From Fibrobacterota bacterium (GTDB lineage Bacteria; Fibrobacterota; Fibrobacteria; UBA11236), in assembly GCA_947466585.1 (NCBI GenBank), contig CANIEU010000009.1, positions 14,923 to 78,922 on the forward strand: a stretch of DNA of 64,000 bases, written 5' to 3'. This document shows positions 2,384-61,075 of this stretch, in pieces. Position 1 is the first letter of the stretch. The number at the start of each line of letters is the position of its first letter. Under the pieces are notes generated by a model. That model did not search any database. It was not told where the DNA came from and saw only the letters and a program-made list of their open reading frames with translations. Made by a program: the position numbers and the translations under genes.

Positions 2384-2408
2384 GCGGAATTCTGAAACGA
2401 GGTCGGCC

Positions 2409-2801
2409 GTGATTCGCGCGCCGCTGATGTTTCTCATGTGCCTGCTCGGCGGAATGGTTTTTCCGTGGTGGTGGCCCGCCGTACCCGGACTGATCGCCGG
2501 GTTCTGGAAACCGGCCCGATTGGTGCGCGGCTTTCTGGCATCCGCTCTCGGGGCCTCTCTGGCCTGGGTGGTGGTGGCGATCTGGTACGATGCCCGTAAT
2601 CAAGGTTTGCTCTCGGGGCGCATCGCACCACTGTTCCATCTTCCCGGTCCCGGAGGATTGATTTTCGCCGCAGGCGTAGTGGGCGGTGTTTCCGGAGGCC
2701 TCGGGTCACTGTTCGGCGCGTGGTTTCGGCGCTTTTGGGCCAGCCTGCATGACGCCTTGGTCGAGGTCGCGGCACCCGTTCCGGACGAAGAGGATGAGTA
2801 G
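2409..2801 (+). CDS. Small hypothetical integral membrane protein (GTG start)
   Basis: 130-aa ORF with 3-4 hydrophobic segments (WWWPAVPGLIAGF..., LAWVVVAIWY, GGLIFAAGVVGGVSGG), high GC3 and an acidic C-terminus. No recognisable family. Confidence 0.55.
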   Translation: MIRAPLMFLMCLLGGMVFPWWWPAVPGLIAGFWKPARLVRGFLASALGASLAWVVVAIWYDARNQGLLSGRIAPLFHLPGPGGLIFAAGVVGGVSGGLGSLFGAWFRRFWASLHDALVEVAAPVPDEEDE

Positions 2802-2803
2802 AG

Positions 2804-2961
2804 GGTAGTAGGTAGACGGTAGATGGTAGTCGATAAAGAAAGAAGGACAAGAACAAGAACAACCCCTTTCCGGTCCGCTGCCTAAATTCTAATCCTCGGG
2901 ATATCGTTTTTTCTGGAATCTCATCAGTCTACCTACTACCGTCTACCGTCTACCTACTATC
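2804..2961. repeat. Compound inverted-repeat element, GGTAG/CTACC type (copy A)
   Basis: Left arm ggtagtaggtagacggtagatggtag (2804-2829) and right arm ctacctactaccgtctaccgtctacctactatc (about 2929-2961) are reverse complements. The core GGTAGTAGGTAGACGGTAG matches perfectly. The spacer is ~90 nt and A-rich. Confidence 0.8.
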
Positions 2962-2970
2962 TTACCCCCC

Positions 2971-3567
2971 ATGCAAAATCTGACCGATTCCATTCAGCGT
3001 TCCCTGGACTCGTCCCGCGATGTTTTGGCCGCGTTCGTCGCCGATCGTGAAAACGCCGCCACCATACGGCGCATGGCCGAAGCCGTGGCCGCGTGCTTTC
3101 AGGCCGGCAACAAGGTGCTCTCCTGCGGAAACGGCGGCTCCGCCTGCGACGCGCTGCACTTCGCCGAAGAATTCACCGGGCGCTTCAAGGGTGACCGCAA
3201 GGCCCTGCCGGTCATTCCGCTGCTCGACGGCGCGAACCTCACCTGCATCGCCAACGACTACGGCTTCGAGCACATCTTCTCGCGCGGTGTCGAAGCTTAC
3301 GGTAAGCCGGGCGACATGCTGCTCGCCATTTCTACCAGCGGCAATTCGGTCAATGTGATTCGGGGCATTGAGGCCGCGCGCGCGGGTGGTCTCAAGGTAT
3401 TGCTCTTCACGGGCAAGGATGGCGGAAAATTGCACGGAACCTGTGACGAAGAAGTTCTCGTGAAGTCCGTCGACACCGAACGCATTCAGGAAGCGCACAT
3501 GGTCGCGCTGCACATCCTCATCGAGTCGGTGGAGCGGATTTTGTTCCCGGAGAATTACAAGGACTAA
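2971..3567 (+). CDS. gmhA: Phosphoheptose (sedoheptulose-7-phosphate) isomerase, SIS domain
   Basis: KVLSCGNGGSACDALHFAEEFTGRF...ISTSGNS..VI...A...G.KV..TGKDGGK is near-collinear with E. coli GmhA. Confidence 0.8.
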   Translation: MQNLTDSIQRSLDSSRDVLAAFVADRENAATIRRMAEAVAACFQAGNKVLSCGNGGSACDALHFAEEFTGRFKGDRKALPVIPLLDGANLTCIANDYGFEHIFSRGVEAYGKPGDMLLAISTSGNSVNVIRGIEAARAGGLKVLLFTGKDGGKLHGTCDEEVLVKSVDTERIQEAHMVALHILIESVERILFPENYKD

Positions 3568-4257
3568 TCAGCCCTGCCCGTAGCTCGCATTCGGGCCGTG
3601 CTTGCGGTTGTAATGCTCGCTCAGAATGTGCCCGGGAATCGCGCCGATACCCGGGTTGAGCGCATACGTGCGCTGGGCCATTTCGGCCACGTGTTCCAGA
3701 GCCACCGCATTCTTGAGCGCCTGTGAGGCGCTCTTTCCCCACACGAACGGCGCATGATGCGCCACCAAAACCGCAGGCATGTCGAGCGGATTGATGTGTT
3801 CGAAGCGCTCGATGATGACCTTGCCGGTGTTGCCTTCATAGTCCGCGGCGATTTCCTCGGGCGTGAGATTACGGGTGACCGGGATGGTGCCCAGAAAATG
3901 GTCGGCGTGCGTGGTGCCGAGGCAGGGGATTTCGCGCAAGGCTTGGGCGAAGGCGACCGCATAAGTGCTATGCGTATGCACGATGCCGCCCACACCGGGG
4001 AACGCGCGATAAAGCATCACGTGGGTGATGGTATCCACCGAAGACCGGAGGGAACCTTCGACTTTCTTGTTTTCGAGGTCGACCACCACCATGTCTTCGG
4101 GCTTGAGTTTGGAATAGGCCACGCCGCTCGGCTTGATCACGACCAGACCCGTGTCACGGTCGATGCCGCTGACGTTTCCCCAGGTCAAGCCGGCGAGCGC
4201 GAGGCGTTCGATGTCTTTGTTGGCTTCGAGAACTTCGATTTTCAGGGCTTCCAGCAT
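3568..4257 (-). CDS. araD: L-ribulose-5-phosphate 4-epimerase (class II aldolase/adducin family)
   Basis: Motifs GNVSGIDRDTGLVVIKPSGV, HTHSTYAVAFAQ and GTTHADHF are present. The internal ATG at 4257, preceded by aaaggaaaag, is the preferred start (the ORF track extends to 4299). Confidence 0.75.
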   Translation of the reverse strand: MLEALKIEVLEANKDIERLALAGLTWGNVSGIDRDTGLVVIKPSGVAYSKLKPEDMVVVDLENKKVEGSLRSSVDTITHVMLYRAFPGVGGIVHTHSTYAVAFAQALREIPCLGTTHADHFLGTIPVTRNLTPEEIAADYEGNTGKVIIERFEHINPLDMPAVLVAHHAPFVWGKSASQALKNAVALEHVAEMAQRTYALNPGIGAIPGHILSEHYNRKHGPNASYGQG

Positions 4258-12213: not shown

Positions 12214-12427
12214 TCGTTCCCACCATGGAGCGCTTCTTTCGCTGGCGGGAGTGGTAGGGTTCCACACCCGCCCTGCCTAATCCCTACCATCGATAAGGAT
12301 CAAGGTCTTATTGACACGGGATCTCGAGCGGAGAATCGCCTCCGAAGGCGCATCGATCACTCCCCGTTTTTTACATTTGCGGCTCTAAAATCGGCCCAAA
12401 CCTCTCCAAACCTGGAAAAGGAATCCC

Positions 12428-13501
12428 ATGAAAAAGGTCTACAACTTCAGCGCCGGCCCTGCCATCCTCCCGCGTGAGGCGATGGAAGCCGGTTCGCGTG
12501 CGTGCCTCGAATTTCAGGGCATGGGCATGTCCCTGCTCGAGATTTCGCATCGCTCGAAGGAGTTCGAGCAGGTTGTGGCCGATGCCGTCGCCATCGTGAA
12601 GGAATTGCTGGGTGTTCCCGATGGATACAAGGTGCTGTTTCTTCAGGGCGGCGCGAGCCTTCAATTCGCCATGGTTCCGATGAACCTGCTGGGAGACAAC
12701 GAAACCGCCGCTTACACGAACACGGGCGTCTGGGCCGACAAGGCGATCAAGGAAGCCAAACTGTTCGGCAACGTGAACGTGGTCGCTTCGAGCAAGGAAG
12801 CGAATTACACCTTCATCCCGAAGGACTATACCGTACCTGCCGACGCGCAGTACTTTCATGTCACCTCGAACAACACCATTTACGGCACGCAATTGCAGAG
12901 CTTTCCCGAGTCGCCGGTACCGCTGGTAGCGGACATGAGCAGCGATATCTTCAGCCGTCCGGTGGACGTGTCGAAGTTCGGCTTGATCTACGCCGGCTCG
13001 CAGAAGAACATGGGCATCGCGGGTACGACCTTGGTGATCATCCGTGAAGACTGGATGGGCAAGGGCAAACGCAAGCTGCCGTCGATGCTCGACTACAAGG
13101 TGCACGCCGACAACGATTCGATGTACAACACGCCTCCGGCGTTCGCCATCTACATGGCGCTTGAGACACTGAAGTGGGTGAAGGCGCAGGGCGGCGTGTC
13201 GGCCATGCAGACGCGCAACGAGGAAAAGGCCGCGACGCTGTACGCCGAGATCGACAACAACCCGCTGTTCAAGGGCACCTGTGCGGTGGAAGACCGTTCG
13301 CGCATGAACATCACCTTCGTGATGGAGAAGCCCGAACTGGAGAAGGAGTTCTTGAAGGAAGCCGAAGCCGCAGGGTTGTCGGGCCTCAAGGGACACCGTT
13401 CGGTGGGCGGCTTCCGTGCGAGCATCTACAACGCCATGGGCCTCGACGGCGTGCAGGCGTTGACTTCACTCATGCAGGACTTCGCCAAGCGTCACGCCTG
13501 A
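12428..13501 (+). CDS. serC: Phosphoserine aminotransferase
   Basis: [12 protein letters not shown] start and the PLP-lysine region (GSQKNMG), collinear with SerC. Confidence 0.9.
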
Positions 13502-13525
13502 TCCAAGCGGCGCTGTCCGAGAACG

Positions 13526-13558
13526 AGCCCGACCGGTTTTCCGGCCGGGCTTTTTTTT
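13526..13558 (+). terminator. Rho-independent terminator after serC
   Basis: Hairpin gcccgaccgg-tttt-ccggccgggc followed by T8. Confidence 0.75.
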
Positions 13559-13793
13559 GTGCTGCCGCATCAAAATTCGTCGAAAACCCCAAAATGACGT
13601 AAATACCGAAAAAGTACCTGTTAGAAGGCTGATTCGGTACGAGAGGAGGACCGCCATCCCCGTCTCATAGGGGATAATTGCGCCGAAAAGGCCATTTGTT
13701 GCAATGTATGGATAATGAAGGCACCGCGTGATAGTACCAAAATATGCCGATTTAATGCAAATACGTGCGTTCAATTGGTGTTTAATTCATACC

Positions 13794-15254
13794 ATGCCCG
13801 TTACCAGAGCCCAGGAATTCCAGCAATGGATTCTTGCCGAGATCGCAAAATTACCTGCGGACACCTGTCTGCCTCCCGATCGGGAATTAAGCGCGCAATG
13901 GGGACTTTCGACCATCACGGTGCAGCGTGTGCTAGCCAAGCTGCGCGACGAGGGCACGGTGATCCGAATTCCCGGCAAGGGTACGTTCACGCCCAACGGC
14001 AACAAGATGGGCCTGACCACCTTGCAGATCAAGGCCGGCACCCTGCGTGAATCCTCGGTGGAACATTTGGTCAGCAGTTTGGTGCGATTGATCTCCGAGG
14101 GCGTGTATCGCAAAGGCAAGGCGCTGCCCCCGGTCAAGTTCGTGCGCAATCAGTTCAAGGTGTCTTCCGAGACGGTGACCACGGCCTACCAGCGGCTCGA
14201 GCAACTCGGGTATGTCGAAAAAATCGGGAAGAGCTATTGGGTGGGCCGGCTCGATCAGCTGATGACGCAGCATGCCGTTCAGGAAGTGTTCTTTTTGCGT
14301 TTCGGGACCGACGATTTCCAGGAGATCTTCAATTCCGAACCGATCGCCTTGGCCTTCCAGAAAATGGAGCGCGAGCTTTACAACGGCGGATACTTTCTTC
14401 ATCCCGAAAAGGCCGAGAACCTTCCCGAGCTTGCCCGGGAGTGGGAAGCCAAATGGCGCTACCCCGCGGGCATCGTCTTTTACGCGGTGGACCCGTCGCA
14501 CCTGCCCTTTCTGCGCGACTTCTTCGACAAGCACGGCGCGCAACTTAAAAACCGCGTGCGCGTGCTGGTGCACGGAGCCAACGGCAATCTCACCGAGCTG
14601 GTGCCGCACGCCCAGGTGTTTCTGCGTGGGAACGTCGATACCGAGAAGGCACGCGTACTCGCGTACTATCTGCTCAACGCAGGATACCGGGAGGCGAATT
14701 TCTGTATCGATGAAACCGATCTCTCGGAGTTCGTGGATGTGCGCTTCTTTTTGAAGATCGCGCTTTCGGTAAAGAACATCATTCCCGACTTCGTGTTCCG
14801 CTTCATCATCCGGCCCAAGCCCGGGTCAACGGTGCGCCTGGCGTTTTCAGACCATCTCGACGAGGGGTATCGCACCTACCTCAAAAGCAAGTATCCCAAC
14901 GCCAATCTCGAAAACCTCGAGAGTCACGTGCAGTTCAGCACCGAGCCCTTTGCCGCCTGCGCGGAGCACCCTGCCACTCGCATCTGGATTTTCTTCCGGG
15001 ATCAAATGGCCGCCGAGGCGATGGATTGGCTCCGCGCACGGGGAAAGAGCGTTCCGCAAGACGTGGCGATCGCCGGGTTTCAGAACGACCCGCGCTACTA
15101 CCACCTCGGCATCAGTACCTGCGGGCCCGATTGGGACAACATGGGTTATGTGATGGCCCACGCCATCATCGGCGACATCAAGCTGTCGAAATCCCGCAAG
15201 GGCTTTGTGAAGGTCCGCTGCCACATGGTGGACAAGCTGACGACGCCGCGGTAG
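13794..15254 (+). CDS. Transcriptional regulator with two tandem GntR-type wHTH domains and a LacI/PBP-type sugar-binding C-terminal domain (AraR-like)
   Basis: wHTH 1 is LPPDRELSAQWGLSTITVQRVLAKLRDEGTVIRIPGKGTF. wHTH 2 is LPPVKFVRNQFKVSSETVTTAYQRLEQLGYVEKIGKSYWV. The C-terminal DVAIAGFQNDPRYYHLGISTCG is a LacI-family C-domain signature. Start chosen at M23 (MPVTRAQ...). Confidence 0.65.
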   Translation: MPVTRAQEFQQWILAEIAKLPADTCLPPDRELSAQWGLSTITVQRVLAKLRDEGTVIRIPGKGTFTPNGNKMGLTTLQIKAGTLRESSVEHLVSSLVRLISEGVYRKGKALPPVKFVRNQFKVSSETVTTAYQRLEQLGYVEKIGKSYWVGRLDQLMTQHAVQEVFFLRFGTDDFQEIFNSEPIALAFQKMERELYNGGYFLHPEKAENLPELAREWEAKWRYPAGIVFYAVDPSHLPFLRDFFDKHGAQLKNRVRVLVHGANGNLTELVPHAQVFLRGNVDTEKARVLAYYLLNAGYREANFCIDETDLSEFVDVRFFLKIALSVKNIIPDFVFRFIIRPKPGSTVRLAFSDHLDEGYRTYLKSKYPNANLENLESHVQFSTEPFAACAEHPATRIWIFFRDQMAAEAMDWLRARGKSVPQDVAIAGFQNDPRYYHLGISTCGPDWDNMGYVMAHAIIGDIKLSKSRKGFVKVRCHMVDKLTTPR

Positions 15255-15263
15255 GAGACGAAG

Positions 15264-15412
15264 AGTGGCTGGGCATGAGTGGTTGGGAATGAGTGACTAG
15301 TGGCTAGCAACACGTCAGGAAACGAGAGATCCTGGATTTCCTTGTTCTCTCTTTACAAGCCACTAACCACTTGTCACTACCCACTACCCACTAGTCACCA
15401 ACCACTCAAGTG
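15264..15412. repeat. Compound inverted-repeat element, AGTGG/CCACT type (copy E)
   Basis: Left arm gagtggctgggcatgagtggttgggaatgagtgactagtgg; right arm ccactaaccacttgtcactacccactacccactagtcaccaaccactc. The ~46-nt spacer contains gatcctgg...ttgttctctc, similar to the copy B spacer. The right arm overlaps the stop of the convergent hydrolase gene. Confidence 0.75.
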
Positions 15413-16202
15413 TCGAGGAATTGAATTCCTCCACCGCTTCCCAGTGATGCACGTGGCCCCAGCGCCCGAACACCTTGAGTTTGCTGCCCGCGATGCGGCT
15501 GTGCAAATACTCGCTGTAGCTCATAGGCGTGAAGATATCCGCTGAACCGATGGTGATCAGGCAGGGTACCTTGATCTCGTGCACGTTTGCGGTGGTGTCG
15601 TGGGTGATGCAGGCGGAAGCCTGCGCGGCGAAGGCGTGCTGCGGCATCCAATCACCCCTTGCTGCGGTATCGGGGCCGGAGCTCTGAATCGCGGCCTTCA
15701 GTTCCGCGCTGTGCGCATTGGTCCACTCCGGTGTCCAAATCCAGAGGAAGAGCAGTTCCTGGAAATCTTCGGGCTTCACCACCGCGCGCACCTTGGAGAG
15801 GTTTTCGAATACCGTGGCGGCGTAGGGGCTGAACTTCGCCCAAGTGCATACCAGCACCATGGAGCGGACGAGATCAGGATGACGCAACGCGATTTGCTGG
15901 GCGATGGCTCCGCCCATGGAAATGCCCGCAAGCCGCACCTTGCCCAAACCCAGGCCGCGGATCAGACCCGCGTAGTCATCCGCCATTTGTGCGGTGGTGT
16001 ACGGGCCTTCGGGTTTGTCCGATTCGCCGGTGCCGCGGTTGTCGACGAGAAAGCACCGGAAAATGTTGGCGTAGGCTTGGGCATGAGCTTCCCACACCTG
16101 TCCGTCGGCTCCGAGGCCCATGATCAGCACTAAAGGTTCTCCGGTGCCGCGTTCTTCGTAAGCAATGCGTATGCCGTTGGTCTCAATGAATTTCTTGATC
16201 AC
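15384..16202 (-). CDS. Alpha/beta-fold hydrolase
   Basis: G-x-S-x-G nucleophile elbow (GISMGG), HGW, and an overall alpha/beta-hydrolase fold pattern. Confidence 0.7.
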   Translation of the reverse strand: MIKKFIETNGIRIAYEERGTGEPLVLIMGLGADGQVWEAHAQAYANIFRCFLVDNRGTGESDKPEGPYTTAQMADDYAGLIRGLGLGKVRLAGISMGGAIAQQIALRHPDLVRSMVLVCTWAKFSPYAATVFENLSKVRAVVKPEDFQELLFLWIWTPEWTNAHSAELKAAIQSSGPDTAARGDWMPQHAFAAQASACITHDTTANVHEIKVPCLITIGSADIFTPMSYSEYLHSRIAGSKLKVFGRWGHVHHWEAVEEFNSSTLEWLVTSG

Positions 16203-39801: not shown

Positions 39802-41814
39802 GTGGCCACCTCCGAACTCATCCGTCTTACCGGCGTGGGGCCCAAGCGCCTCGCGGCGCTGCAAGCGGCGGGGATCCAGACCTTTCGCGACTTGGTGTAC
39901 CGGGTGCCGCGCCGCTACGTCGACCGCACGCGGCTGACGCCGATCGCCACGCTGAACGAGGGTGACGACGCCTTCTTCGTGGCCCGTATCGACTCGGTCA
40001 AAACCCCGCCGGGCCGTCTCAACGTCACCGTTTCGGATGAGACGGGCAGCTTCGAACTCGCCTTCTTCAACGCCGCGCAATTCCTGCGTCAAACGCTGCT
40101 CCCCGGCCGCCGCATCTCGGTGGCGGGCGTGGTCAAACGCTTCCGCACCTTGCAGATCGCGCACCCCGAGTGGGAGATTTTGCGGGAGGATCAAGACCCG
40201 CGCGGCGGCTTGCTGCCGTTGTACCCGCTCACCGAGGATTTGGCAGAGACCCGCGCCGAGCACAAGTTGCTGCAAAAGCTCGCCCTCGAAGCCCTCGACA
40301 CTTACGCATTCTCAGATCCGATTCCGTTGCCTGAGCGCACCTTCCTGGGCCTGCGTCCCGAGAAGGACGTCCTCAAAATCCTCCACGCGCCCGAGACCCT
40401 TGCCGATGTGGCCGCCGCGCTCGCCGAGTTGAAGACCCGCGAGCTGTGGCCGCTGTGCAGGGCCCGTGCCGAGGCCCGCCGCCTGCGTCGCACGCGCGGC
40501 AGGGCCTTTCCTTCTACTCCCACCGTTGAAGCGGCAGAGAAGGCCGTACGCGCGGCCTTGCCCTTCACGCTCACCGGCGGGCAGGAAGAGGTGCTTGCCC
40601 AGATTCACGCTGCAATGGGCGGAGGGGAGCAGGGACGAGGCCAGTTCTTCGGATTGCTGCACGGCGATGTGGGTTCGGGTAAAACGGCTGTGGCCTTGCT
40701 CTCTGCCGTGCGCGTGGTTGCGTCGGGATCACAAGTGGCCTTGCTCGCCCCAACCGAAATACTGGCGGTGCAGCATTACCGCAATCTGGAACCGTGGCTC
40801 CGCGCCGCCGGCATCGAGATCGCACTCCTCACGGGAGATACTGCGCCCGCGGACCGTCGCCACATCGAAGCGAAGCTGGCGGACGGAACCTTGCCGATCA
40901 TCGTGGGGACGCACGCCTTGCTCTCCAGCGGCACGGTGTTCAAAGATCTGCGTTATGTGCTGGTGGACGAGCAGCATCGCTTCGGCGTGGAGCAGCGCGC
41001 CCTGCTGACGCAGAAGGGCGTGGAGCCGCACGTGCTCTACCTCTCCGCCACGCCGATCCCGCGTACGTTGGCGCAGTCGCTGTACGGCGATCTCGAGGTA
41101 TTGACCCTGGCCGAAAAACCTGCGGGCCGCCTGCCGGTGAAAACGCGCATCGTGCCCGCCGCCAAGCAGGCGGAGCTGTTGCAGTTCCTCCGGGGCGAGA
41201 CGCTAACGAACAATAATCAGGTTTACTGGGTGGTGCCGCGCATCAGTTCGAGCGGCGAAGAAGAAGATGGTGTTGCCGGAATCGAGAGTGCAGTCAAACG
41301 CTTGAAAGCCGCCGCACCTAAAAACGAATGGAAGGTGGAGTCGGTTCACGGCCGGGTTCCCTCTGCCGATCGGGACCGCATCCTGTCCGCTTTTCGGCGG
41401 GGCGAAATCCACGCCCTGGTGGCGACCACGGTGATCGAGGTGGGCGTGGACGTGCCGGGCGCGAACCTGATGGTGGTGGACGGCGCGGATCGCTTCGGCA
41501 TGGCGCAGTTGCATCAGCTGCGCGGTCGCACGGGGCGCGGCGCGGCGCAGGCGTGGTGCTTTTTACTGGAGCCCTCGCCGCTGGGTTGGAACGAAGACAC
41601 TGAGGCCCGTCTGCGCGATTTCGCCGGTACCGAAGACGGGTTCGCGATTGCGGAGATGGACCTGAAGCGACGCGGTGCGGGCAGCCTCGACGGCAAGCAG
41701 CAAAGCGGGTTCGGCCTGTTGCGCTTTGCGGATATTCTGGAGGATGCGGATTTGATCCGCGAACTCGGCGCGCGCGCGGAGGCGTTCGCCGAGAGGGGCG
41801 TTGCCGGAACTTAA
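39802..41814 (+). CDS. recG: ATP-dependent DNA helicase RecG
   Basis: Wedge/OB N-domain, SF2 helicase motifs (GDVGSGKT, DEQHRFG, SATPIPRT), and a TRG motif region. GTG start. Confidence 0.9.
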   Translation: MATSELIRLTGVGPKRLAALQAAGIQTFRDLVYRVPRRYVDRTRLTPIATLNEGDDAFFVARIDSVKTPPGRLNVTVSDETGSFELAFFNAAQFLRQTLLPGRRISVAGVVKRFRTLQIAHPEWEILREDQDPRGGLLPLYPLTEDLAETRAEHKLLQKLALEALDTYAFSDPIPLPERTFLGLRPEKDVLKILHAPETLADVAAALAELKTRELWPLCRARAEARRLRRTRGRAFPSTPTVEAAEKAVRAALPFTLTGGQEEVLAQIHAAMGGGEQGRGQFFGLLHGDVGSGKTAVALLSAVRVVASGSQVALLAPTEILAVQHYRNLEPWLRAAGIEIALLTGDTAPADRRHIEAKLADGTLPIIVGTHALLSSGTVFKDLRYVLVDEQHRFGVEQRALLTQKGVEPHVLYLSATPIPRTLAQSLYGDLEVLTLAEKPAGRLPVKTRIVPAAKQAELLQFLRGETLTNNNQVYWVVPRISSSGEEEDGVAGIESAVKRLKAAAPKNEWKVESVHGRVPSADRDRILSAFRRGEIHALVATTVIEVGVDVPGANLMVVDGADRFGMAQLHQLRGRTGRGAAQAWCFLLEPSPLGWNEDTEARLRDFAGTEDGFAIAEMDLKRRGAGSLDGKQQSGFGLLRFADILEDADLIRELGARAEAFAERGVAGT

Positions 41815-41972: not shown

Positions 41973-42101
41973 GGTACGTCTTTGGTGACGGGAGCAAGAT
42001 TGCACCCGCGAGGGACTCGCGAAGGATGCAAAATGCGCGGGTCCATAACGGTTTGCTGCGAAAATACCGGCTTTAAATGACGGGATTGTTCAAAAGGCGC
42101 C

Positions 42102-43219
42102 TTATCCTTTTGGTTGAGGTTGCTTGAGGTGCTGGAGTTCGCGCTTTAGTTCCCGCATAAGTTCCCGTTTCAATTCGGCTTCGGTAGGGAGGTGGAGCTT
42201 GTATCGACTGGCAAATATTTTTTGGGCCTTTTCATTTCCGAGCGTATACCGGACGACAGCGTCATTCTTATCGGTACAGAGTAAGAGCCCTAAGGTGGGC
42301 TGGTCTGTACCACATCGGCGCTTTTGGTCGAAGTAGTTGACATAAAGCTGCATCTGTCCCAAATCTTGGTGCGTGAGCTTTCCCGTTTTGAGATCGATGA
42401 TCACGAAGCACTTGAGCACGGTGTGGTAGAAGACGAGATCGATGTAAAAATGGTCGCCGTCCAACGTGATGCGCTCCTGCCTAGAGATGAATGCGAACCC
42501 ACGTCCCAATTCAAATAGAAACGACTGAAGGTTGCTGATAAGGCCCGATTCCAGTCCTGATTCTACGAGCCTTGGGGATTCGGGTAAGCCGAGGAATTCG
42601 ATTACGATCGGGTCTTTGAATACATCACCAGCAGACTTGTTTCCTGACCTTTTTGGGCGAGTCTCAAGAGACCTTTTTTGTCTTTGCTGAGCGCGAGTCG
42701 TTCATAGAGTAATCTGTTGATTTGACGTTCGAGTTCGCGTGCGGACCAGTTGTTTCGAGTCGCTTCGATTTCGTAGAAGGAACGTCCCTGTGGGTTGTCC
42801 ACCCTTAAGAGGTTTCGATAGTGGGTCCAGGAGAGGCCTAGGTTAATCTCACCGTGTTGAAAAGAATTTCCACTCACTGCGTGGAAATTCTCTCCCTCTT
42901 TGATCAGCCTTGGATAGGTTTGATAAAATTGTTTCATGTAGGCGAGATTCTGTGGCGAGTACCCAGGGCCCAGATCTTTCGTCATTCTTTTTGAAAGTTG
43001 TCGGATAAGGCCTCTTCCATATTCGGCCCGTCCGTTGCCTTTTTGTTCTTCTTCTACGATTTCGCGACCTACAAGCCAAAAGGCAATGACCTGCGCACTG
43101 TTCACAGAACGGGCAGCAGTGTCCCTTGCTTTTTCGAGTATTCCCAGAATCCTTTTGTAAAAGCCGGGTTTTCCGCGATTCGTTTTAGGCCCGACAATAG
43201 TGTGGGATTTGGTCAGCAT
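42102..43219 (-). pseudogene. DUF1016/YhcG-like PD-(D/E)xK nuclease, disrupted by a frameshift
   Basis: The N-terminal 205-aa ORF (42602-43219) and C-terminal ORF (42102-42509) belong to one family. The conserved KDPIVIEFLGLPE...GRGFAFISRQERI...IDLVFYH...IIDLK region is in a different frame from the N-part. The single-nt shift lies near 42600-42625. Confidence 0.7.
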
Positions 43220-43497
43220 AGGCTTCCTTTGTCAGAAGAAGCCTGAGAAGTTGATTTTTGGCGGTCTTAAATGCGAGTGACGATGGGTGCAATTTGAAGG
43301 GGAATAATGGGAACCTAAAAGAGGTCTGAAAATCGAGACGAAATGATTTGTCGCCGTTATCGAATTTCGGGTTTTGCCTTTCGAGGCGGTTTACAGGGAA
43401 TGTTCTGTGCCTAAGTTCGAGATGGTCAGGATGATCGATCTGATTTGTAATCCGGTTTCACCCAACGGTTCCATGGACTCGAACAAAGGAGACTCCA

Positions 43498-43656
43498 ATG
43501 CCCAAGCGTCGCACCCACCGGTATTTGATGATTACCTGCATGATCGCTCTCGCGTTGATTACGGCGGAGACGGCTCATCTTGAGGGTGCACAGGACCGGG
43601 CTCCGGCTTCGGCGCCGGTGGTGTTTGAGCATGCCCTGATGGCCAGTAACAGCTAG
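43498..43656 (+). CDS. Small hypothetical membrane protein (52 aa) with strong SD
   Basis: aaaggagactccaATG; the product MPKRRTHRYLMITCMIALALITAETAHLEG... has one predicted TM helix. Too short for the ORF track. Lies in the low-GC islet. Confidence 0.3.
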   Translation: MPKRRTHRYLMITCMIALALITAETAHLEGAQDRAPASAPVVFEHALMASNS

Positions 43657-43921
43657 TTGCGGGCCTTTGGAATGTTATCGGAATTGGGATTTGGATTCGA
43701 TCTGGCGGCTACGGTTTTTTCAGCACGAACCGCCCGGTCTTTTTGCCACCGACACGTTCTATCCAAAGGATCTGAACACAGCCGTGGGCTATTTCATAAG
43801 TAAAGCATATGGAAATTCATAAGTAAAGCGCAAGAGATGGTCGAGCCGATGTGGGTCGGCTCAAGGTCCGGCGTGCGGTGGGGTTAAGTCTGTGTGCCTG
43901 CGGCACGGATGGCCCTACTCC

Positions 43922-45796
43922 TCAGGTACTTTGGTTTTTTATTGAAAGTCTGGACTTGAAATAATCCCTTGTTTCGGAATCTGTGAAGTACACATAGCAG
44001 CCCTTTTGCCCACGCGTCATAAGCGTGCGGTAGGTATTCTTGATGATCAGGTCGGTCTGAATGGCCGTTGCAATTGGGTTTTCCCTCGACCGTTTCTTCC
44101 AACCGAACACCGACTTGTCGCCCCGTGCTCGTTTTGATGGATCAGTAACAACCTTGCCGTCACGGACAATTAGGTCGGGTCCTACGATGACTCCGACATA
44201 GTCGATTTCGAGGCCTTGGCAGGTGTGTATGCAGCCCACTTCGCTGACGGAATTTTTTTGAATGATCCAAGCCTGCCCGTGTTCATTAAGATTCCAAGTG
44301 GCGGCATATTCGCCGATATGGATATCCTTTTTTTCTGGATTATTCTTGCTGACCCATTCCCAGCAATACCCTGCAACAATGCGGGCTTTATTCTTCTCTT
44401 CGTTTTTGTATTTAATGAAATCGTGAAGAGCCTCTGGGTCATCAAACACCTTGAAGTCGTATTCGAGATCGGTAAGATCCGTGTTCGCGGTTTCTCGCAC
44501 CTGGAGCATGTTGTCGAGCCACGCGAGGTAACCATCGGAACCATTGCAGCGGAATTGGGATTCAAGCTGAAGCTCCGTAACTTCGGCTCCGGCTGCATTG
44601 GCAAACGTCCGAATTTGATTCATATCCCCGATATCTTCGAGGGTGACTCGTTGGTCTTCATCGAGAAAGAAAATGGCACAATTCGAGGCGTTGATGATTT
44701 CCATTACCTGATTTTCGCCCAGGTGTTTAAACATTCCGGATTTGAGATTCAACCTATGGGCTTCATCGACGATTAATGTGTCGTATGCGGACCGTTCAAG
44801 CGCGTGAAAACTTCCAGATCCACTGAAAAGTCCGGCAATGCGGTTCTTGCGCATTGTACCCGCGAGTTTGGCTTCATATACCAATCGGGGGGCAGAGTTT
44901 CGGGTGACGTAGAGCGCGTTGTGTTCGCGTTTACTCGTGAGCTCAACGAGTAGGTTGATTGCGAGAACCGATTTACCCGTTCCGGGGCCACCCTGAATAA
45001 TGAGAACTTTTTTGTGGGAGGGGGTGGCCAGCATGGCAAGGCGCAGGGCATGCTGGTAGGCGACTTTCTGGTCGTCGATCATGACGAACTCAGCGTTGCC
45101 TGAAAGCATGCCGGCGATGTGGTCGGCAAGGCCTTTGGAGGGCCGGATTCTGCCGTGTTCAATGCGGGTCATGATCCGGCTATCGTCGCCATGTTTGATG
45201 CGTTCGCCGATATAACCGCGGAGCTTTAAAGCGTCGGGCTTTAAGAATAAGGGGGCGCGCTCGATGTGTTCGGCGTAGCGATCATTCCGAATGACCTCAT
45301 CTGGTGCGTAGTTGTGCAAATATGCGCAGGGATGAAGCTGGATGGCGTCTTCTTCGACGGTGGCATTGTAATCCTCTAAGAGCCGTTTATACGACCAAGC
45401 CTGATAAGAGGGGTGGGTGAGTTCCCGTTCTCCTTTGCCTACAAAGGTGGTGACGACGGCATCAAGTTCGGTGATCCCTGCTGTTTGCCACTGTTTGAGT
45501 TCAATGAGTACCACGCTTTCTTGGCATTCGCCGTCGCGCCCGGTGATGATGAAGTCGATGCGCTTGGAAGACCGGGGAATGTGGTATTCAATGGCGACAC
45601 CGGAGTCTTTGGCGATTTCGTCGGTGGCGAGGACTCGCTCCATGTGTTGGAGCGAGTTGGCCCAGGAGCGGATTTCTGCGGCTCCGACTTTGTGGCCGCC
45701 GGTGGCCTTTTTGAAGGCGTCCAGAATGATGTTTTCGATGTCGTTACTCAAGACATCGATTTGGAATTGTTCCTTGGTCGCGGAGTAGACGATCAT
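43922..45796 (-). CDS. DUF2075-family protein: N-terminal PD-(D/E)xK nuclease-like domain fused to SF1-like P-loop ATPase
   Basis: N-terminal IDFIITGRDGECQESVVLIELKQW (D...E.K nuclease signature). Walker A VLIIQGGPGTGKSVLAINLL and Walker B DTLIVDEAHRL. Low-GC context, so likely horizontally acquired. Confidence 0.75.
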   Translation of the reverse strand: MIVYSATKEQFQIDVLSNDIENIILDAFKKATGGHKVGAAEIRSWANSLQHMERVLATDEIAKDSGVAIEYHIPRSSKRIDFIITGRDGECQESVVLIELKQWQTAGITELDAVVTTFVGKGERELTHPSYQAWSYKRLLEDYNATVEEDAIQLHPCAYLHNYAPDEVIRNDRYAEHIERAPLFLKPDALKLRGYIGERIKHGDDSRIMTRIEHGRIRPSKGLADHIAGMLSGNAEFVMIDDQKVAYQHALRLAMLATPSHKKVLIIQGGPGTGKSVLAINLLVELTSKREHNALYVTRNSAPRLVYEAKLAGTMRKNRIAGLFSGSGSFHALERSAYDTLIVDEAHRLNLKSGMFKHLGENQVMEIINASNCAIFFLDEDQRVTLEDIGDMNQIRTFANAAGAEVTELQLESQFRCNGSDGYLAWLDNMLQVRETANTDLTDLEYDFKVFDDPEALHDFIKYKNEEKNKARIVAGYCWEWVSKNNPEKKDIHIGEYAATWNLNEHGQAWIIQKNSVSEVGCIHTCQGLEIDYVGVIVGPDLIVRDGKVVTDPSKRARGDKSVFGWKKRSRENPIATAIQTDLIIKNTYRTLMTRGQKGCYVYFTDSETRDYFKSRLSIKNQST

Positions 45797-46140
45797 AGCT
45801 CGGTGTATTTGGCGGAACTGCCCTTGGCTTTGTCAATCGGGTACTTGGCCTCGTTTTCAACCATCTTTTGCTCAAGGGCGGCCATGAGGTCGATGCCATG
45901 CTTGTCGGCGAGCATGAGGGTCCAGTAGAAGACATCGGCAAGCTCGGCGGCGAGTTTGTCCTCGGACCCGGGTTTGATCTGGTTGTCTTGAGTCCACTGG
46001 AAGAGCTCTAGGACCTCGGAGGCTTCGAGCTGGAGGCTGATGGCCAGATTTTTTGAATCGTGAAATTGTGACCAGTCCCGGGCTTCACAAAACTTCCGGA
46101 TTTTGCCGATGATCACACTTAATTGCGCAGAAGTTCCCAT
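45793..46140 (-). CDS. MazG-like nucleotide pyrophosphohydrolase (all-alpha NTP-PPase) small protein
   Basis: EExxE...ExxD-type metal-binding pattern (LEASEVLELF...AAELADVFYW). ~115 aa. Stop overlaps the DUF2075 start (ATGA). Confidence 0.65.
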   Translation of the reverse strand: MGTSAQLSVIIGKIRKFCEARDWSQFHDSKNLAISLQLEASEVLELFQWTQDNQIKPGSEDKLAAELADVFYWTLMLADKHGIDLMAALEQKMVENEAKYPIDKAKGSSAKYTEL

Positions 46141-46565
46141 GGGGTGAAGTTTAGCATCACAGTGGAATAAAAGTGTGACACCAGAAAAGGACTCCCCCTT
46201 CGATCGAATCACACGCCTACAACTTACTGACCCACCCCACATCCACCTCACCGCCGCATCCCCAACGAAACCCGAAACCCGCGTTCCCACACCGAACCCG
46301 ACTCAAACAAAAATCAAACGCCTACCCATAACCCTCCCTGATGAAACCTTTGCAAACCTATGACACAGCTGTGATACTCCACCTCTCCGCACCCCGTATA
46401 TTCCCCATGTCGACAACACGTCGCAACCCGGACGGCCGGATCAGTAGGGGGGACCCTCCCAACGATTCAGGACGAGAAACAGAGGTCCCTGCGGCGGGGG
46501 TAAAGCAAGAGCGGTTCGCAATACAGCGGACCGCCCTTTTCTATTGACCAAATCCTATCGGCCAC

Positions 46566-46598
46566 AAAAAAAACGAGCCCCCGAGGGAGGACTCGTTT
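46566..46598 (-). terminator. Rho-independent terminator (minus strand) after the frameshifted secreted-protein gene
   Basis: Minus strand reads aacgagtcctccc-tcgg-gggctcgtt followed by T8. Confidence 0.65.
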
Positions 46599-46713
46599 TG
46601 CAATCAGGGCCACGGGTTAATCACCACCCGAGACCCTCACTACGCCCTACAAAAACAGCTTACTTCAAGACTCCGCCTACGGCGGACTTCGGGCCTTCGG
46701 CCCTCAGCATCAC

Positions 46714-47525
46714 TTATTTGAGGACCATTACGGCCAGCGGCGAACCGGTGTGTTGGCGGTTGTGCAGATAATAGCCCCGGTTGTAATCCAGGTACACATC
46801 ATCCGACGAATGCCACTTCGTGTTCCAGTTTTCCGGATACGGATCCACGATCACGAACTCATCGCCCTCATGCTTGAAATGCGCATAGCCGTCGATCATC
46901 GTCGGCTCGTCGCCGATGCGGAAATCATGCGCCACGGTGTAGTACTTCTCATAGGCCGGCTGCGTAATGAAAGCGCCGCCGTAACCGCCGCGTGGGTCCA
47001 GGTCGAACGATCCCGCTTCCAGTTCTTGGAGCGCGCATTGTTCCAATCCTTACCACCCTGCCAGGTACCGGTCTGGCGCCACATGCGTTCGTCTTGCCAC
47101 TTCTTCGCATCCTCATCCGAACGAACGGGATGATCCTCGTGATGCGTATGCCCCTTCATGGTGGCGTTCACGTGGGTCATCTTGTTCTTGGAGCCCGGGC
47201 CCTTGGTGCCGGCGGCAGCTTCCATTCGGTGCTCATGACGCCAGCGCATTTCGGCATCGCGACGCTCCTGCGCTTCTGCGGAGTCCTTCGGCGGGTGCGC
47301 GTATTCGAACTTGTGACCGGGTTCGTACTTGTCATCCTCCATGCGCTCGGAAGCACTCGTTTTCGGCTTGGCAAAGCTCGGCTGTGTGGTCACCAAGCCA
47401 AGGCCCGCCAACACCAGCAGCGTCATCGTGCCGAGCAAAATCTGCGGCATGGGTGAACGCGTCAGAATATTGGCGGATGAAGGGGAAGGAGGTTTGTTAA
47501 AAGGGGTCGGAATTTTTTGGGTCAT
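46714..47525 (-). pseudogene. Secreted hypothetical protein with internal frameshift
   Basis: The signal-peptide-bearing N-part (ORF 46896-47639) and C-part (46714-47046) overlap in different frames. Coding signal (GC3) switches frame near 46975-47010. An upstream in-frame ATG at 47639 is the alternative start. Confidence 0.5.
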
Positions 47526-48164
47526 CTGAATCTCCGGGTTATGGGGGTCCATCAATGAACTTGGAACGCCTCCGCGGGCGTAGGGGGTCTTGACCCCAAG
47601 TCCTTCGAAACGACGATGAAGACCGGACGTTGAAAACACAACCTTTGAAACCTACGGCATCGTCTCCATCGATAATCCCGCATCAGAGTGGGGATGGCTC
47701 CGAATAGAATCCTCCACCACGATCGCGAGTACCGCTGAAGCCGTGAGCAACGACAGCAGTACCGCGCCGATGGTCAGCATCGAACGACGCACCCTCAGGC
47801 TATGGAAGGAATGGGCATCTTGGGAAGGCGGTTTCAGGTACAACGGCATGGCGGAACTCCGGGGCAGGGGCGGGCGGAGCTACAAGAGACACCCCGAAAG
47901 ACAGCAAATGAAGGAGGTTTAACCCGGTGTTTTCGAAATTTCCCAAAAAGCGGGAAATTTCGATTACGGCGGGTGAAACCTAGGGAATGTGTGGCCCCAA
48001 CTTTGGCGCAACTATGACACAAATGCGACACTTCGTTACTGGGGGCGCGGTAGATTACAAGAAGTCAACCTGCTCTGTACCCCGGACGGATGAACCAAGG
48101 CTCTCTCTCCCCTGAGGTTCAAACGAGAAACAAGGGTCACTGCGGCGCATGATGACAAGGAAGG

Positions 48165-48196
48165 GGCGGCTCTAGCGGGCTGCCCTTTCTTTTTGG
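48165..48196 (+). terminator. Candidate intrinsic terminator with no annotated upstream gene
   Basis: ggcggctc-tagc-gggctgcc (2 GU pairs) followed by ctttctttttgg. Nearest upstream plus-strand coding is more than 5 kb away. Confidence 0.35.
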
Positions 48197-48475
48197 CCTC
48201 CAATCCCGCTGCGCGCCTATTTCCCGTATTGACAAGCACTTACGCGAAGCCCGTCCCCCCGGCAGAACCTCGAACCCGCGCGCGCTCGGGCAGGCAATCG
48301 ATCTGAAGCCGGTTCCGAACAACCCGATGCCTTGTTAATGACGAAAAGAGGGGTAGGGAAGGGCCCTGTAAAGAACTAACTTTCCCCCGGTTTTGCGATT
48401 TTTCGCCCTTTTTTAAGTCTTCCGAAGTCGCTGCTGCAGTCAAATACAAGCTTTAACCGAGAACGGGACCGGTTC

Positions 48476-51709
<3,234 letters not shown>

Positions 51710-58133: not shown

Positions 58134-59708
58134 TTAGAGCCACACCGCAGAGGTCATCGCTCTCCGGCCCTGATGAGTGATCGCTTCGAGTCGGAGATAG
58201 CCGGAACCGGTGCCCACATTCTTGCTTTCCAGCGAAGCCGCACGCAGGCCCGCCAGCACATCGGCTCCCACCGTTTCATCAACCCGTAAGAGACCCGAGG
58301 ATTTGTCTTCGCTGCCCCCGAAGGTCCAATCCGCCAACACGCGTTCGCGCGTTTCTCCGCGCGCCGCCCCGTACACGGTGACCGAAACGAGCGGCCCGTA
58401 GTCGGAGGTCGAGACGGCGATGACTTGAAAATGATTGCCCGCGGCGCGCAGCTCTGCGTAGGGCCCATCGGTGATCAGGCAACGCGGGTAAGCCAAGCTA
58501 CCGCGGAAGGTTGCGCGCAACGACTCTGCATCGCGCCCCGCCGCCGGCACCAACGTGCGCACGCGTCCGAATAAGTGGCTGCGGCCCTGTTTCAGCGACA
58601 CCAGCGGCAGCTTCACGCCCGTATTGCGGTTGAAATCGCCGTGGGCATCGTTTGCGCCGATAGGGAGGAGGCGATGGCCCTGCAGAAGTTGTTCGATCCA
58701 GAACGCCTTGCCCGCCAGGTAGTCGGGCCCGAGATTGCCATTCCAGAACTGCAGGCCGCGCACGCCACGCATACCGCGATCCCATTGCAAATCCTCGGCA
58801 CGCCACTCGCCGCGCCGAAAGATCTGGCGTTCGAGCCAGCCGATGCGGGCCTTGGGGTGCGCCGCGAACGAGGGCGTTTCGCCCAGTAAATCCAAGGTCT
58901 CCGCGATGGTGAGGTCGGGACGGTTGCGCAGTCCGCGCCGCCCGCCATCGCCCAGACCGGGTAAAAATTCAGGATGCCCAAAGGTGAGCAAATGCACGTT
59001 TTCGCCGCGACTGTTCCCGCACGAAACCTCCTCGCCGGGCACCAAGGTCGGACGCTCCGGGTGTTCGCGGTTCAGTGCCTCGGCCTGCGCGCGATACTCC
59101 GCAAAATTGGCCTTGGGAACGCATGTCTCTAGGAACCGTTCGCGCTTGTAATAAAAGTCGTACGAATGATCGGTGCAGAGCACGAAATCGAGCCCCACCG
59201 CATCGGCGGTTTGCTGCATCAAATCGAGCGGCGCTCCGAACTCCACCGGGTCGGACGAATACTCGCTGTGGCAATGCATCTCACCGGCAAACCATCCCGG
59301 AGGGTAGGGCAGGGGAGATTCCAGTCGCAACACTTCCAGGGGTGTAGGGAGCAGGCCGGGGAGGTTGTGGTTCTCAAAGGTTCGAGTCTCTGCGCGGGAG
59401 GTCGTGCCCAATTTGCCCAATGTGCCCAATGGGCCGCTCTTCTGCTCGATGGTGATCTTACCGGAGATACGCACCAACCCGCGCAAGGCACCGGATTGCA
59501 GCTCGGGTAGGGGAAAAGCGAGGTGTTGTAGGTTTCCCTGGCATACCTGATCGGGCTCAAAACTGCGAACGGCCGTGCCGCCGAAATCGTCCCACAGATG
59601 AAAACGGACACTGCAAATACGAATGGGGTAGAGGTCCGCATCCTTGACCAAGAGCCAAACCGTCAGCGGTTTGCCGGGCAACAGCTGATGCGGCGCATCC
59701 AGAAACAC
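58134..59708 (-). CDS. PHP-domain metal-dependent phosphoesterase family protein with N-terminal extension
   Basis: PHP motifs GEMHCHSEYSSD, CTDHSYDF, HLLTFGH and GANDAHG. Confidence 0.65.
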   Translation of the reverse strand: MFLDAPHQLLPGKPLTVWLLVKDADLYPIRICSVRFHLWDDFGGTAVRSFEPDQVCQGNLQHLAFPLPELQSGALRGLVRISGKITIEQKSGPLGTLGKLGTTSRAETRTFENHNLPGLLPTPLEVLRLESPLPYPPGWFAGEMHCHSEYSSDPVEFGAPLDLMQQTADAVGLDFVLCTDHSYDFYYKRERFLETCVPKANFAEYRAQAEALNREHPERPTLVPGEEVSCGNSRGENVHLLTFGHPEFLPGLGDGGRRGLRNRPDLTIAETLDLLGETPSFAAHPKARIGWLERQIFRRGEWRAEDLQWDRGMRGVRGLQFWNGNLGPDYLAGKAFWIEQLLQGHRLLPIGANDAHGDFNRNTGVKLPLVSLKQGRSHLFGRVRTLVPAAGRDAESLRATFRGSLAYPRCLITDGPYAELRAAGNHFQVIAVSTSDYGPLVSVTVYGAARGETRERVLADWTFGGSEDKSSGLLRVDETVGADVLAGLRAASLESKNVGTGSGYLRLEAITHQGRRAMTSAVWL

Positions 59709-59822
59709 CTCGGGCCAACGCTTGTGCAGCGGCGACCACGGCAGGTTGAACTTGTAATGCGTTTCGGCGTAGGAATGAATGGGGAACCTCGGTGAAGGAA
59801 ATTAGGTAATGGGGAAAGGAAC

Positions 59823-60032
59823 CTAGGGTTTTACCGGGGTTGTCGCCACAGTGGTCCAATACGCACTTGTGTATTCCCGGCAGGCCTTGCGCACCAGATC
59901 GGCAACGGAGATGTCTTTGCCGGTGCGCTTACGCTCGTGCACCACGATGGCCTCAAGGTCGAGGTATTCCTGACCCATGTAGATGTTGCGGCGGGTCTTG
60001 ACTGGCTTGGAGAATCCTGTGTTCGAATTCAT
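59823..60032 (-). CDS. Ribbon-helix-helix (CopG/ParD-like) DNA-binding protein, solo
   Basis: RRNIYMGQEYLDLEAIVVHERKRTGKDISVADLVRKACREY fits the RHH beta-alpha-alpha pattern. Upstream ATACAC repeats. Low-GC patch. Confidence 0.55.
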   Translation of the reverse strand: MNSNTGFSKPVKTRRNIYMGQEYLDLEAIVVHERKRTGKDISVADLVRKACREYTSAYWTTVATTPVKP

Positions 60033-60608
60033 GGCAACCTCCAAAAAGGGGTAAAATCTGCCATAAATATACACAACATACACCATATACACAAGTAATA
60101 TTGGCGGATAGGGGAGTCTGCCCTACTGAATTATGGGAGTAAAAGTCTTGCCTGTAAAGTCCACAATCCCAATTAATTAAAGGTTATACAGTATTCTTGT
60201 AAGGTAAAGGATGAATATAAGCGGCGAAATTTGCCAAAAAACCGACATACCGTTCTCTTGGGAGTCTTAGGCTGGTTTCACCGAACACCAAGGCTAAGGC
60301 GCTTCGGACAGCTTCAAAGGCCGAAATATTGGAATCAGGGCCCCACGGTTCAATAATATCAGGGTCCTGGTGAGCATACGGAATTGGCTGAAGTCCTAAT
60401 CGACCTGTGGTCCTGGTGGATTTCCTCTAGCTCTCTGAGGCGATCTGGATTTCGCCGCGGACCAAGCCTGCATCGGACACGGAACCAGATTCCACATCGC
60501 ATCGCTTGAAGTCGACACCACAACAGCTGACGCATAGAAATCCTTGTCCACACGGACTCGAAGTCCAGCCTGATCAAGCGCACACTGCTTTGAGCCCACG
60601 CAGCTTGG

Positions 60609-60677
60609 ATATTATGTAAACTATTTGGTTTTTCGCCAAAAATCCTAGTCTACCAAACCAAATAGTTTACATAATAT
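60609..60677. repeat. Perfect 23-bp inverted repeat with 23-nt spacer
   Basis: atattatgtaaactatttggttt ... aaaccaaatagtttacataatat. AT-rich. Lies in the low-GC patch next to tRNA-Gln. Confidence 0.85.
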
Positions 60678-61075
60678 AACTTATGCGAACCAAATTATCT
60701 CAAAATGAAGGTCAAAAAGCAGGTCAAAAACGGGATCTTCCCGAGGCTGTTTTGGGGTCAGGATTTCTCATGGCCCGACGCGATTAGGATCGATACAACC
60801 CGCCGCGCGTTATCGGTATTCCGTGTTTCCACGGATTCCCGAACCGTGTGCAATGCCAGAGCAACTCGATCCACCCTGTTTTGTGGTTGTCCTGGTTGTG
60901 CTTGATCAGACTTCCAGAGTGGACGGATTACGGGCAGGGAGCCGCACAAAAGGGAGACTGAACGGAGGGAGGATTGTCAGGGTTAACCGAGGCGGGGTGC
61001 AACAACGGTGCCACCCCTACCCTGTTTTAATGGCCCGGCTGGACCGGGCACGGCAAAGTTGCCGAAGGAAAATGG

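Follow-up and report, generated by a model that had tools for sequence, protein, structure and literature searches.

Between the genes recG and carB, in a stretch of 64,000 nucleotides from a Fibrobacterota bacterium (assembly GCA_947466585.1, contig CANIEU010000009.1, positions 14,923 to 78,922 of the forward strand; this whole stretch is called the window, and its first letter is position 1), lies an islet of low GC content that carries two coupled genes on the minus strand. The upstream gene (45793-46140) encodes a MazG-like protein of 115 amino acids (aa), the downstream one (43922-45796) an intact protein of 624 aa in which a predicted PD-(D/E)xK nuclease domain is fused to a DUF2075 helicase. 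The stop codon of the former overlaps the start codon of the latter in an ATGA at 45793-45796, read directly as ...gag cta TGA / ATG atc.... A preliminary description, made from the letters alone, had placed both genes and their overlap at these positions and had proposed an uncharacterised defence module. The layout was read exactly as described. The proposal stands in so far as the pair is widespread, unnamed and accompanied by defence genes, whereas the large protein turned out to have the already known architecture of the defence proteins AbiO and Nhi.

The 624-aa protein aligns collinearly from end to end with over 150 cluster representatives of its family. Residues 262-606 (43979-45013, minus strand) constitute a DUF2075/Schlafen group-3 helicase of superfamily 1B (SF1B), which matches the Pfam profile PF09848 (SLFN-g3_helicase/DUF2075) over positions 1-354 of 354 with an E value of 5.2e-103 and 345.5 bits, the cut-off being 24. 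The Walker A motif GGPGTGKS is located at residues 269-276 and a Walker B motif of the DExx type, DEAH, at residues 344-347. An AlphaFold model of the full-length protein (predicted local distance difference test, pLDDT, 74) has the two-lobe RecA-like fold and matches the SF1B helicases RecD2, SLFN11, SLFN14, Dda, Upf1 and nsp13. For the N-terminal domain (residues 1-250; 45047-45796, minus strand) the same model predicts the order helix, three strands, helix, strand of a restriction-type nuclease core, and this domain, with its D81...E99-x-K101 signature, is predicted to fold like a restriction endonuclease. No Pfam family matched it at E values up to 5, and a search of solved structures with the family profile gave no match at E ≤0.01. 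The evidence for the fold is moderate, as a model of residues 1-255 alone came out worse (pLDDT 62) than that region in the full-length model. E70, D81, E99 and K101 as well as GGPGTGK and DEAH are all invariant among 32 aligned homologues. Three validated defences that consist of a single gene have this same combination of a PD-(D/E)xK nuclease and a DUF2075 helicase: AbiO from lactococci, Nhi from staphylococci and Nhi-like (Millman et al. 2022).

The MazG-like protein is an all-alpha, DCTPP1-like NTP pyrophosphohydrolase by its match to Pfam PF12643 (E value 1.7e-17, 63.8 bits against a cut-off of 27). Its nearest relatives among solved structures are mouse and human dCTP pyrophosphatase 1 (DCTPP1, also RS21-C6), at 5e-17 and over nearly the whole length. 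The homologues span 104-122 aa, which makes the ATG at 46140 the right start. Among 127 distinct partner sequences E39, E42, E45, E66 and D69 are conserved in 99-100%, and the residues of the RDWxQFH/FQW pocket mostly in 89-100%. Because the metal-binding and pocket residues are so strictly conserved, the protein appears to have been kept as an enzyme and not merely as a binding partner. Membership of the small protein in a housekeeping set, or of the large one in a restriction-modification or repair family, had been raised beforehand as grounds against a defence module. Neither was found: judged by its relatives, the MazG-like protein is part of a subfamily whose members are mostly encoded alongside DUF2075 helicases, and not of a housekeeping ortholog set, and the 624-aa protein matched no restriction-modification or repair equivalog in NCBIfam.

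The association of the two genes recurs far beyond the window. A scan of one genome per species yielded 80 loci with a homologue 44-64% identical to the 624-aa helicase, from Proteobacteria, Bacteroidota, Verrucomicrobia, Firmicutes, Actinobacteria, Chloroflexota, Saccharibacteria and methanogenic archaea. In 55 of these a MazG-like gene shares the strand of the helicase gene: 39 have it directly upstream and 15 directly downstream, while in the remaining one it lies at a distance of 4.8 kb. The identical 4-nucleotide overlap was seen in ten related loci, nine with the MazG-like gene upstream and one with it downstream. As MazG-like genes presumably occur about once per genome, chance would be expected to produce such pairs in far fewer than one locus. 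The reverse search, starting from the MazG-like protein, gave 64 metagenome loci with enough flanking sequence, and in 44-46 of them a DUF2075 helicase adjoins the MazG-like gene. Same-strand adjacency is thus found across distant taxa in both search directions, as expected of a two-gene operon; the preliminary description had named a lack of such conservation as grounds against its proposal. The pairwise divergences of both proteins are correlated (Mantel r 0.54, a value reached in 0 of 2000 permutations), a figure to which shared organismal history could contribute. An apparent fusion of both genes into one 762-aa open reading frame (ORF) in locus L043 was rejected: its upstream part is out of the MazG frame and the long ORF is a high-GC read-through. 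In a metagenome-assembled genome of the Cellvibrionaceae (L026:7627-7998), the MazG-like gene beside the helicase gene has an in-frame stop in the conserved ELxEHFQW motif, which is either decay of the partner or an assembly error.

No MazG-like gene accompanies the helicase gene in the other 25 of the 80 loci, and an all-against-all comparison of the flanking ORFs revealed no recurrent substitute partner in them. The MazG-like protein must therefore be dispensable for at least some members of the family, and since about 30% of the homologues lack it, an accessory function is more probable for it than that of core effector. This bears on the nucleotide-depletion and abortive-infection logic that the preliminary description had brought up and that is a guess. 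According to that explanation, the nuclease-helicase would serve mainly as a sensor of phage DNA or replication intermediates, upon which the MazG-like protein, as the effector, would empty the pool of canonical dNTPs (or NTPs) and halt replication of phage and host alike. The strict conservation of its catalytic residues and the translational coupling of the genes would fit, as would the association of MazG with DUF2075 helicases whatever nuclease domain these carry. MazG-like domains have, moreover, been predicted to be NTP-targeting effectors that stand in for the dNTP-degrading effector of PUA-HAD conflict systems (preprint 10.64898/2026.01.15.699771). The catalytic residues of the nuclease are invariant too, however, which argues that the large protein is not a mere sensor; 31% of the homologues do without MazG, and Nhi, AbiO and Nhi-like, the relatives with validated function, each consist of one gene. 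DCTPP1-type enzymes are constitutive house-cleaning tetramers for which no switch is known. Depletion is the chief rival to a module that acts directly on foreign DNA, but is considered rather improbable.

The same counts bear on the idea that the genes are a toxin-antitoxin-like addiction pair of a decaying mobile islet, in which a toxic nuclease-helicase would be neutralised by binding of the small protein and catalysis would be irrelevant. A small upstream gene that overlaps a large nuclease gene would be in keeping with this, AbiO is toxic at high copy number, and the neighbouring YhcG gene in the islet is a pseudogene. Set against these points are the strict conservation of all metal-binding and pocket residues of the MazG-like protein, the reversed gene order in 15 loci and the 25 loci in which the partner is missing while the nuclease motifs are still intact; an addiction pair is very improbable.

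The helicase family as a whole is large, with more than 8000 scored database matches, many of them at 63-68% identity; at 50% identity and E <1e-30, the subfamily comprises 765 clusters in bacteria, archaea and the Candidate Phyla Radiation, and collinear relatives extend down to about 32% identity. Its distribution is patchy, with 44-64% identity across these three groups, and relatives occur on 110 plasmids. A phage origin was considered and rejected: only 4 of 50,697 phage records contain a relative, and the best of these, the Microcystis 'phage' Mwe-JY31 (PP438423.1), which carries genes for a TPR protein, a MazG-like protein and a DUF2075 helicase, encodes a Rep3 plasmid replication initiator and may for that reason be a plasmid-like element rather than a phage.

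The composition of the islet is foreign to its surroundings. GC content in 42000-46300 is 51.0%, whereas 1-kb windows elsewhere in the 64 kb average 60.1% (standard deviation 2.8%). In a 500-nucleotide profile it drops from roughly 0.64 at 41.5 kb to values of 0.46-0.55 over 42.0-46.0 kb, lies at 0.54-0.59 as far as 48.5 kb and exceeds 0.61 again thereafter. GC at third codon positions amounts to 49-69% in the four recognisable genes of the islet and 67-72% in two unassigned ORFs, compared with 79% in recG (39802-41814, plus strand) on the left flank and 85% in carB (48476-51709, plus strand) on the right. The islet is thus real, and the deviation in composition and codon usage persisted on proper computation. 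Of the 42.0-48.45 kb originally delimited, 42.0-46.3 kb forms its sharp part, and the remainder (46.3-48.45 kb, 56.3% GC) is only mildly low. As had been stated, no integrase was found, nor was a tRNA gene or a flanking att-like repeat that would mark the islet as an integrative element.

Genes for recognised defence functions recur near the pair in unrelated genomes. For 119 ORFs that flank the module in 20 loci, a scan at E ≤1e-10 gave matches to SoFic (three ORFs), HNH (three) and PDC-S04 (three), as well as to DpdF-like and PsyrT-like helicases, RmrA, AbiEii, PDC-S23 and PDC-S05. In L107, Shedu SduA (2.8e-67) and a PD-T4-1-like protein are encoded nearby, and in L102 HEC-09 (2.5e-51). The neighbours in Geobacter sulfurreducens include ParE/Phd, transposases and a methyl-directed restriction enzyme of type IV (4e-194). 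On a Hymenobacter plasmid, a restriction-modification system and a second DUF2075 gene were found, and an Mrr_cat nuclease is a further neighbour. The Sorek group counts PF09848 itself among its markers of defence.

Variants of the module differ mainly at the two ends of the large protein. In about 28 of the metagenome loci, which share a common spacing pattern, the first 175 residues or so of the helicase gene product are different. In the two cases studied in detail (L102:4345-6387 and L107:4351-6510), which adjoin close relatives of the MazG-like gene, a GIY-YIG nuclease is followed by DUF2075 and a C-terminal S24 LexA/UmuD-like peptidase with a GDSM and Cys-Gly site. An S24 domain is also fused to about a fifth of the members with a PD-(D/E)xK-type head, including the G. 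sulfurreducens protein; the 624-aa protein of the window has the PD-(D/E)xK head and no S24 domain. Given the GIY-YIG layout and the S24 fusions in related loci, the constant elements are the MazG-like protein and the DUF2075 motor, with the nuclease head exchangeable and the self-cleaving domain optional. Such effector swapping is typical of defence systems and was counted in favour of a defence function. From its GDSM and Cys-Gly motifs, the S24 domain could plausibly be a switch that senses RecA and single-stranded DNA.

The S24 domain, carried by about 20% of the family, is also a reason to consider a mobile module for DNA damage or replication stress, in which the helicase-nuclease would process damaged or stalled DNA and the pyrophosphatase would clear damaged dNTPs under SOS-like control. 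MazG and NUDIX proteins are classic pool sanitisers, and the islet of the window adjoins recG. S24 domains, however, also act as damage-sensing switches in mobile elements and immunity, and the window protein lacks one. The patchy distribution suggestive of horizontal transfer, the foreign composition and the absence of a match to an NCBIfam repair equivalog point away from repair, as do the neighbours, which are restriction, Shedu, toxin-antitoxin and transposase genes and not repair operons. On the strength of distribution, neighbours and conserved catalytic sites, both the addiction pair and this damage-related role are judged less likely than a defence function, the latter being an unlikely explanation in itself.

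No third gene is generally conserved with the module; only a SauUSI-like gene (seven loci), a NUDIX gene (eight loci) and an occasional TPR or HNH gene recur. The SauUSI-like enzyme, composed of PLD, SF2 helicase and DUF3427 domains (PADLOC mREase_IV), directly adjoins the module in seven unrelated genomes, with or without MazG (L028, L031, L044, L057, L070 at 939-3788, L076 and L086 at 12427-15552). Enzymes of the SauUSI architecture recognise 5-methylcytosine and 5-hydroxymethylcytosine, and DUF3427 enzymes next to DUF2075 NTPases were noted before (Lutz et al. 2019). The arrangement suggests that a SauUSI-like enzyme and the DUF2075 module can form a larger cassette aimed at DNA with modified cytosines. 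A NUDIX gene of about 130 codons is located within a few kb of the module in L028 (10396-10791), L070 (3800-4192), L031, L032, L044, L057, L061 and L077. In L028, which is without a MazG-like gene, it follows the helicase gene downstream at a distance of 460 nucleotides, as though it took the place of MazG. A gene for a TPR-repeat protein was observed directly upstream of the MazG-like gene in two loci (L173:3629-7863, from PP438423.1, and L083:18215-20576).

The remainder of the islet in the window contains little that can be recognised. The only such neighbour of the pair is a minus-strand gene for a YhcG/DUF1016 PD-(D/E)xK nuclease (42102-43219), with DUF1016_N at 42602-43219 (Pfam, 7e-40) and YhcG_C at 42102-42509 (Pfam, 8e-43); its halves match the PADLOC candidate PDC-S02 at up to 1e-55 and 3e-56. 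Both domains are present in different reading frames, separated by a single frameshift at which the switch of frame is visible in the translation, as the preliminary description had it. The identical split was found in two independent assemblies. Two overlapping minus-strand ORFs at 46714-47639, one of 110 aa and the other of 247 aa (209 aa from an internal ATG), matched nothing in Pfam, NCBIfam or PADLOC. They had been taken for one frameshifted secreted protein, a view that was not upheld: a gene caller treats them as two genes, and two coupled small genes are equally possible. The longer ORF bears a hydrophobic, signal-like stretch. A terminator-like hairpin at 46570-46599 (minus strand), with a 13-pair stem and a T run and identified by consensus match only, ends the upstream minus-strand unit and precedes the MazG-like/helicase pair. 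Because of its position, the pair probably has a transcript of its own. An imperfect direct repeat of about 215 nucleotides (46345-46560 and 47999-48215; roughly 60-70% identity with two well-matched cores) brackets the unassigned ORFs, and its first copy sits upstream of the MazG-like gene. It has no Rfam match, and no Rfam family was found anywhere in 41.5-49 kb. Elsewhere in the window, a second low-GC patch extends over 59250-60750, with 1-kb GC values down to 47.7% against a background of 60%, and no ORF of at least 100 aa is present between about 59860 and 61200.

Taken together, these observations are best explained if the pair is a horizontally acquired two-gene module against phages or other mobile DNA, with the 624-aa protein as its core. 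Nhi of Staphylococcus epidermidis (SERP2475) breaks down replication intermediates of phage DNA (Bari et al. 2022), and by analogy a defence module whose helicase-nuclease attacks foreign DNA is given a probability of about 0.6. The DUF2075 motor would load onto invading or replicating foreign DNA, which would then be cut by the N-terminal PD-(D/E)xK domain. By virtue of the ATGA overlap, both proteins would be made from one message, and they may also form a complex. The MazG-like protein would act on the deoxynucleotide pool as an active DCTPP1-like NTP pyrophosphohydrolase; its most likely substrates, base-modified dNTPs of the dCTP type, would be converted into dNMP and pyrophosphate. With the pool cleaned in this way, a phage could not make its DNA resistant to nucleases by modification, nor could modified nucleotides set free when phage DNA is degraded be salvaged into the chromosome of the host.

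The role of the MazG-like protein is less certain than the defence function as such. Sanitation of the pool from modified dCTP-type nucleotides is favoured because its closest characterised relatives are DCTPP1 enzymes, because it is dispensable in about 30% of the loci and because sister loci add a modified-cytosine-dependent restriction enzyme and a NUDIX sanitising hydrolase. DCTPP1 enzymes prefer 5-modified dCTP. A more far-reaching and quite tentative idea is that the DCTPP1-like MazG and the NUDIX protein of the sister loci are dedicated partners of DNA-targeting immunity, serving 'nucleotide-pool hygiene' by destroying base-modified dNTPs. Salvaged modified nucleotides in the host chromosome would otherwise expose the cell's own DNA to the SauUSI-like nucleases encoded alongside.

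Several points weigh against a defence module of this kind. The defence role of the subfamily and of the pair is inferred, and the same holds for the targeting of DNA, for what the MazG-like protein hydrolyses and for a complex between the two proteins; the substrate preference is extrapolated from mammalian DCTPP1. The PADLOC models for Nhi and AbiO cover only the helicase part of the 624-aa protein, residues about 245-468, and not its full length, and no PADLOC model matches the MazG-like protein. The 25 of 80 helicase homologues without a MazG-like gene have been mentioned. The census of defence neighbours is qualitative and lacks a matched background set, and the S24 LexA-like fusions could instead indicate a role in DNA damage or repair.

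AbiO/Nhi nuclease-helicases are validated yet poorly understood examples of immunity by a single protein, and the conserved subfamily described here usually travels with a DCTPP1-like enzyme. If this pairing is functional, it would link direct degradation of DNA to control of the nucleotide pool in one compact operon and would offer a simple two-gene system in which to study how hosts cope with modified-base phages. The human relatives of both proteins, the SLFN11-type helicase domain and DCTPP1, act in genome surveillance, which adds evolutionary interest. If the tentative hygiene function were true, it would constitute a new functional layer of bacterial immunity and provide a prokaryotic root for the pairing of the human genome-guardian families DCTPP1 and Schlafen helicases.

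Among the known systems closest to the 624-aa protein is Nhi-like (SG141 of Bacillus cereus FSL H8-0482), a verified anti-phage protein that is likewise composed of a nuclease and a DUF2075 (PF09848) helicase and is likewise about 610-625 aa long. Alignment by hhalign with the first 399 residues of the B. cereus protein gave a probability of 85% and an E value of 6e-6, collinear over residues 5-347 and with the E..D..ExK residues aligned. Identity is only about 20%, though, and BLASTP finds nothing but the Walker A/B segment. Nhi-like was tested as a single gene and has no described MazG partner, and the list of Nhi-like genes in Table S17 of Millman et al. (2022) does not include three genomes in which the present subfamily occurs. 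Nhi and AbiO similarly combine a PD-(D/E)xK nuclease and an SF1B/DUF2075 helicase in one polypeptide; they differ in being stand-alone genes and in having N-terminal domains without detectable sequence similarity to that of the 624-aa protein. PADLOC matches to the latter are weak and partial (PDC-S41 at 7e-19 for the C-terminal half, AbiO at 6.5e-14, Nhi at 3.5e-12). With PADLOC and BLASTP matches partial, the hhalign similarity remote and Table S17 without the subfamily genomes, the protein is best regarded as a distant branch of its own within the known AbiO/Nhi class.

The MazG-like protein shares with DCTPP1/RS21-C6 the metal-binding E..E..E / E..D residues and the RDWxQFH and FQW motifs. 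In contrast to DCTPP1, it is operon-coupled to a nuclease-helicase and lacks the eukaryotic N- and C-terminal extensions, and its DCTPP1-type substrate is predicted. The dNTP-depletion defences based on dCTP deaminase or dGTPase (Tal et al. 2022) and the PUA-Cal-HAD systems also place a nucleotide-pool enzyme in a defence context, but these enzymes belong to an unrelated superfamily and act alone as effectors, whereas the pool enzyme described here is an optional partner of a nuclease-helicase. With the group III Schlafen proteins SLFN11 and SLFN14, the 624-aa protein shares a homologous helicase domain, as reflected in the Pfam family name and a Foldseek E value of about 5e-9. Their N-terminus is a tRNase core, however, while a PD-(D/E)xK DNase-like domain is predicted here, and tRNA targeting is without support for the present protein. 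The SauUSI-type type IV restriction enzymes, neighbours of the module in seven related loci, share the theme of modified cytosine; they form a separate protein family that is absent from the window. A literature search returned no paper on a MazG/DUF2075 pairing, none of relevance on Schlafen with MazG and none that joins MazG, defence islands, helicase and nuclease; this agrees with the earlier impression that the pair is not a named system. In conclusion, the architecture of the large gene was already known, and the new elements are its conserved, unnamed partnership with a MazG-like gene and the variants of that partnership.

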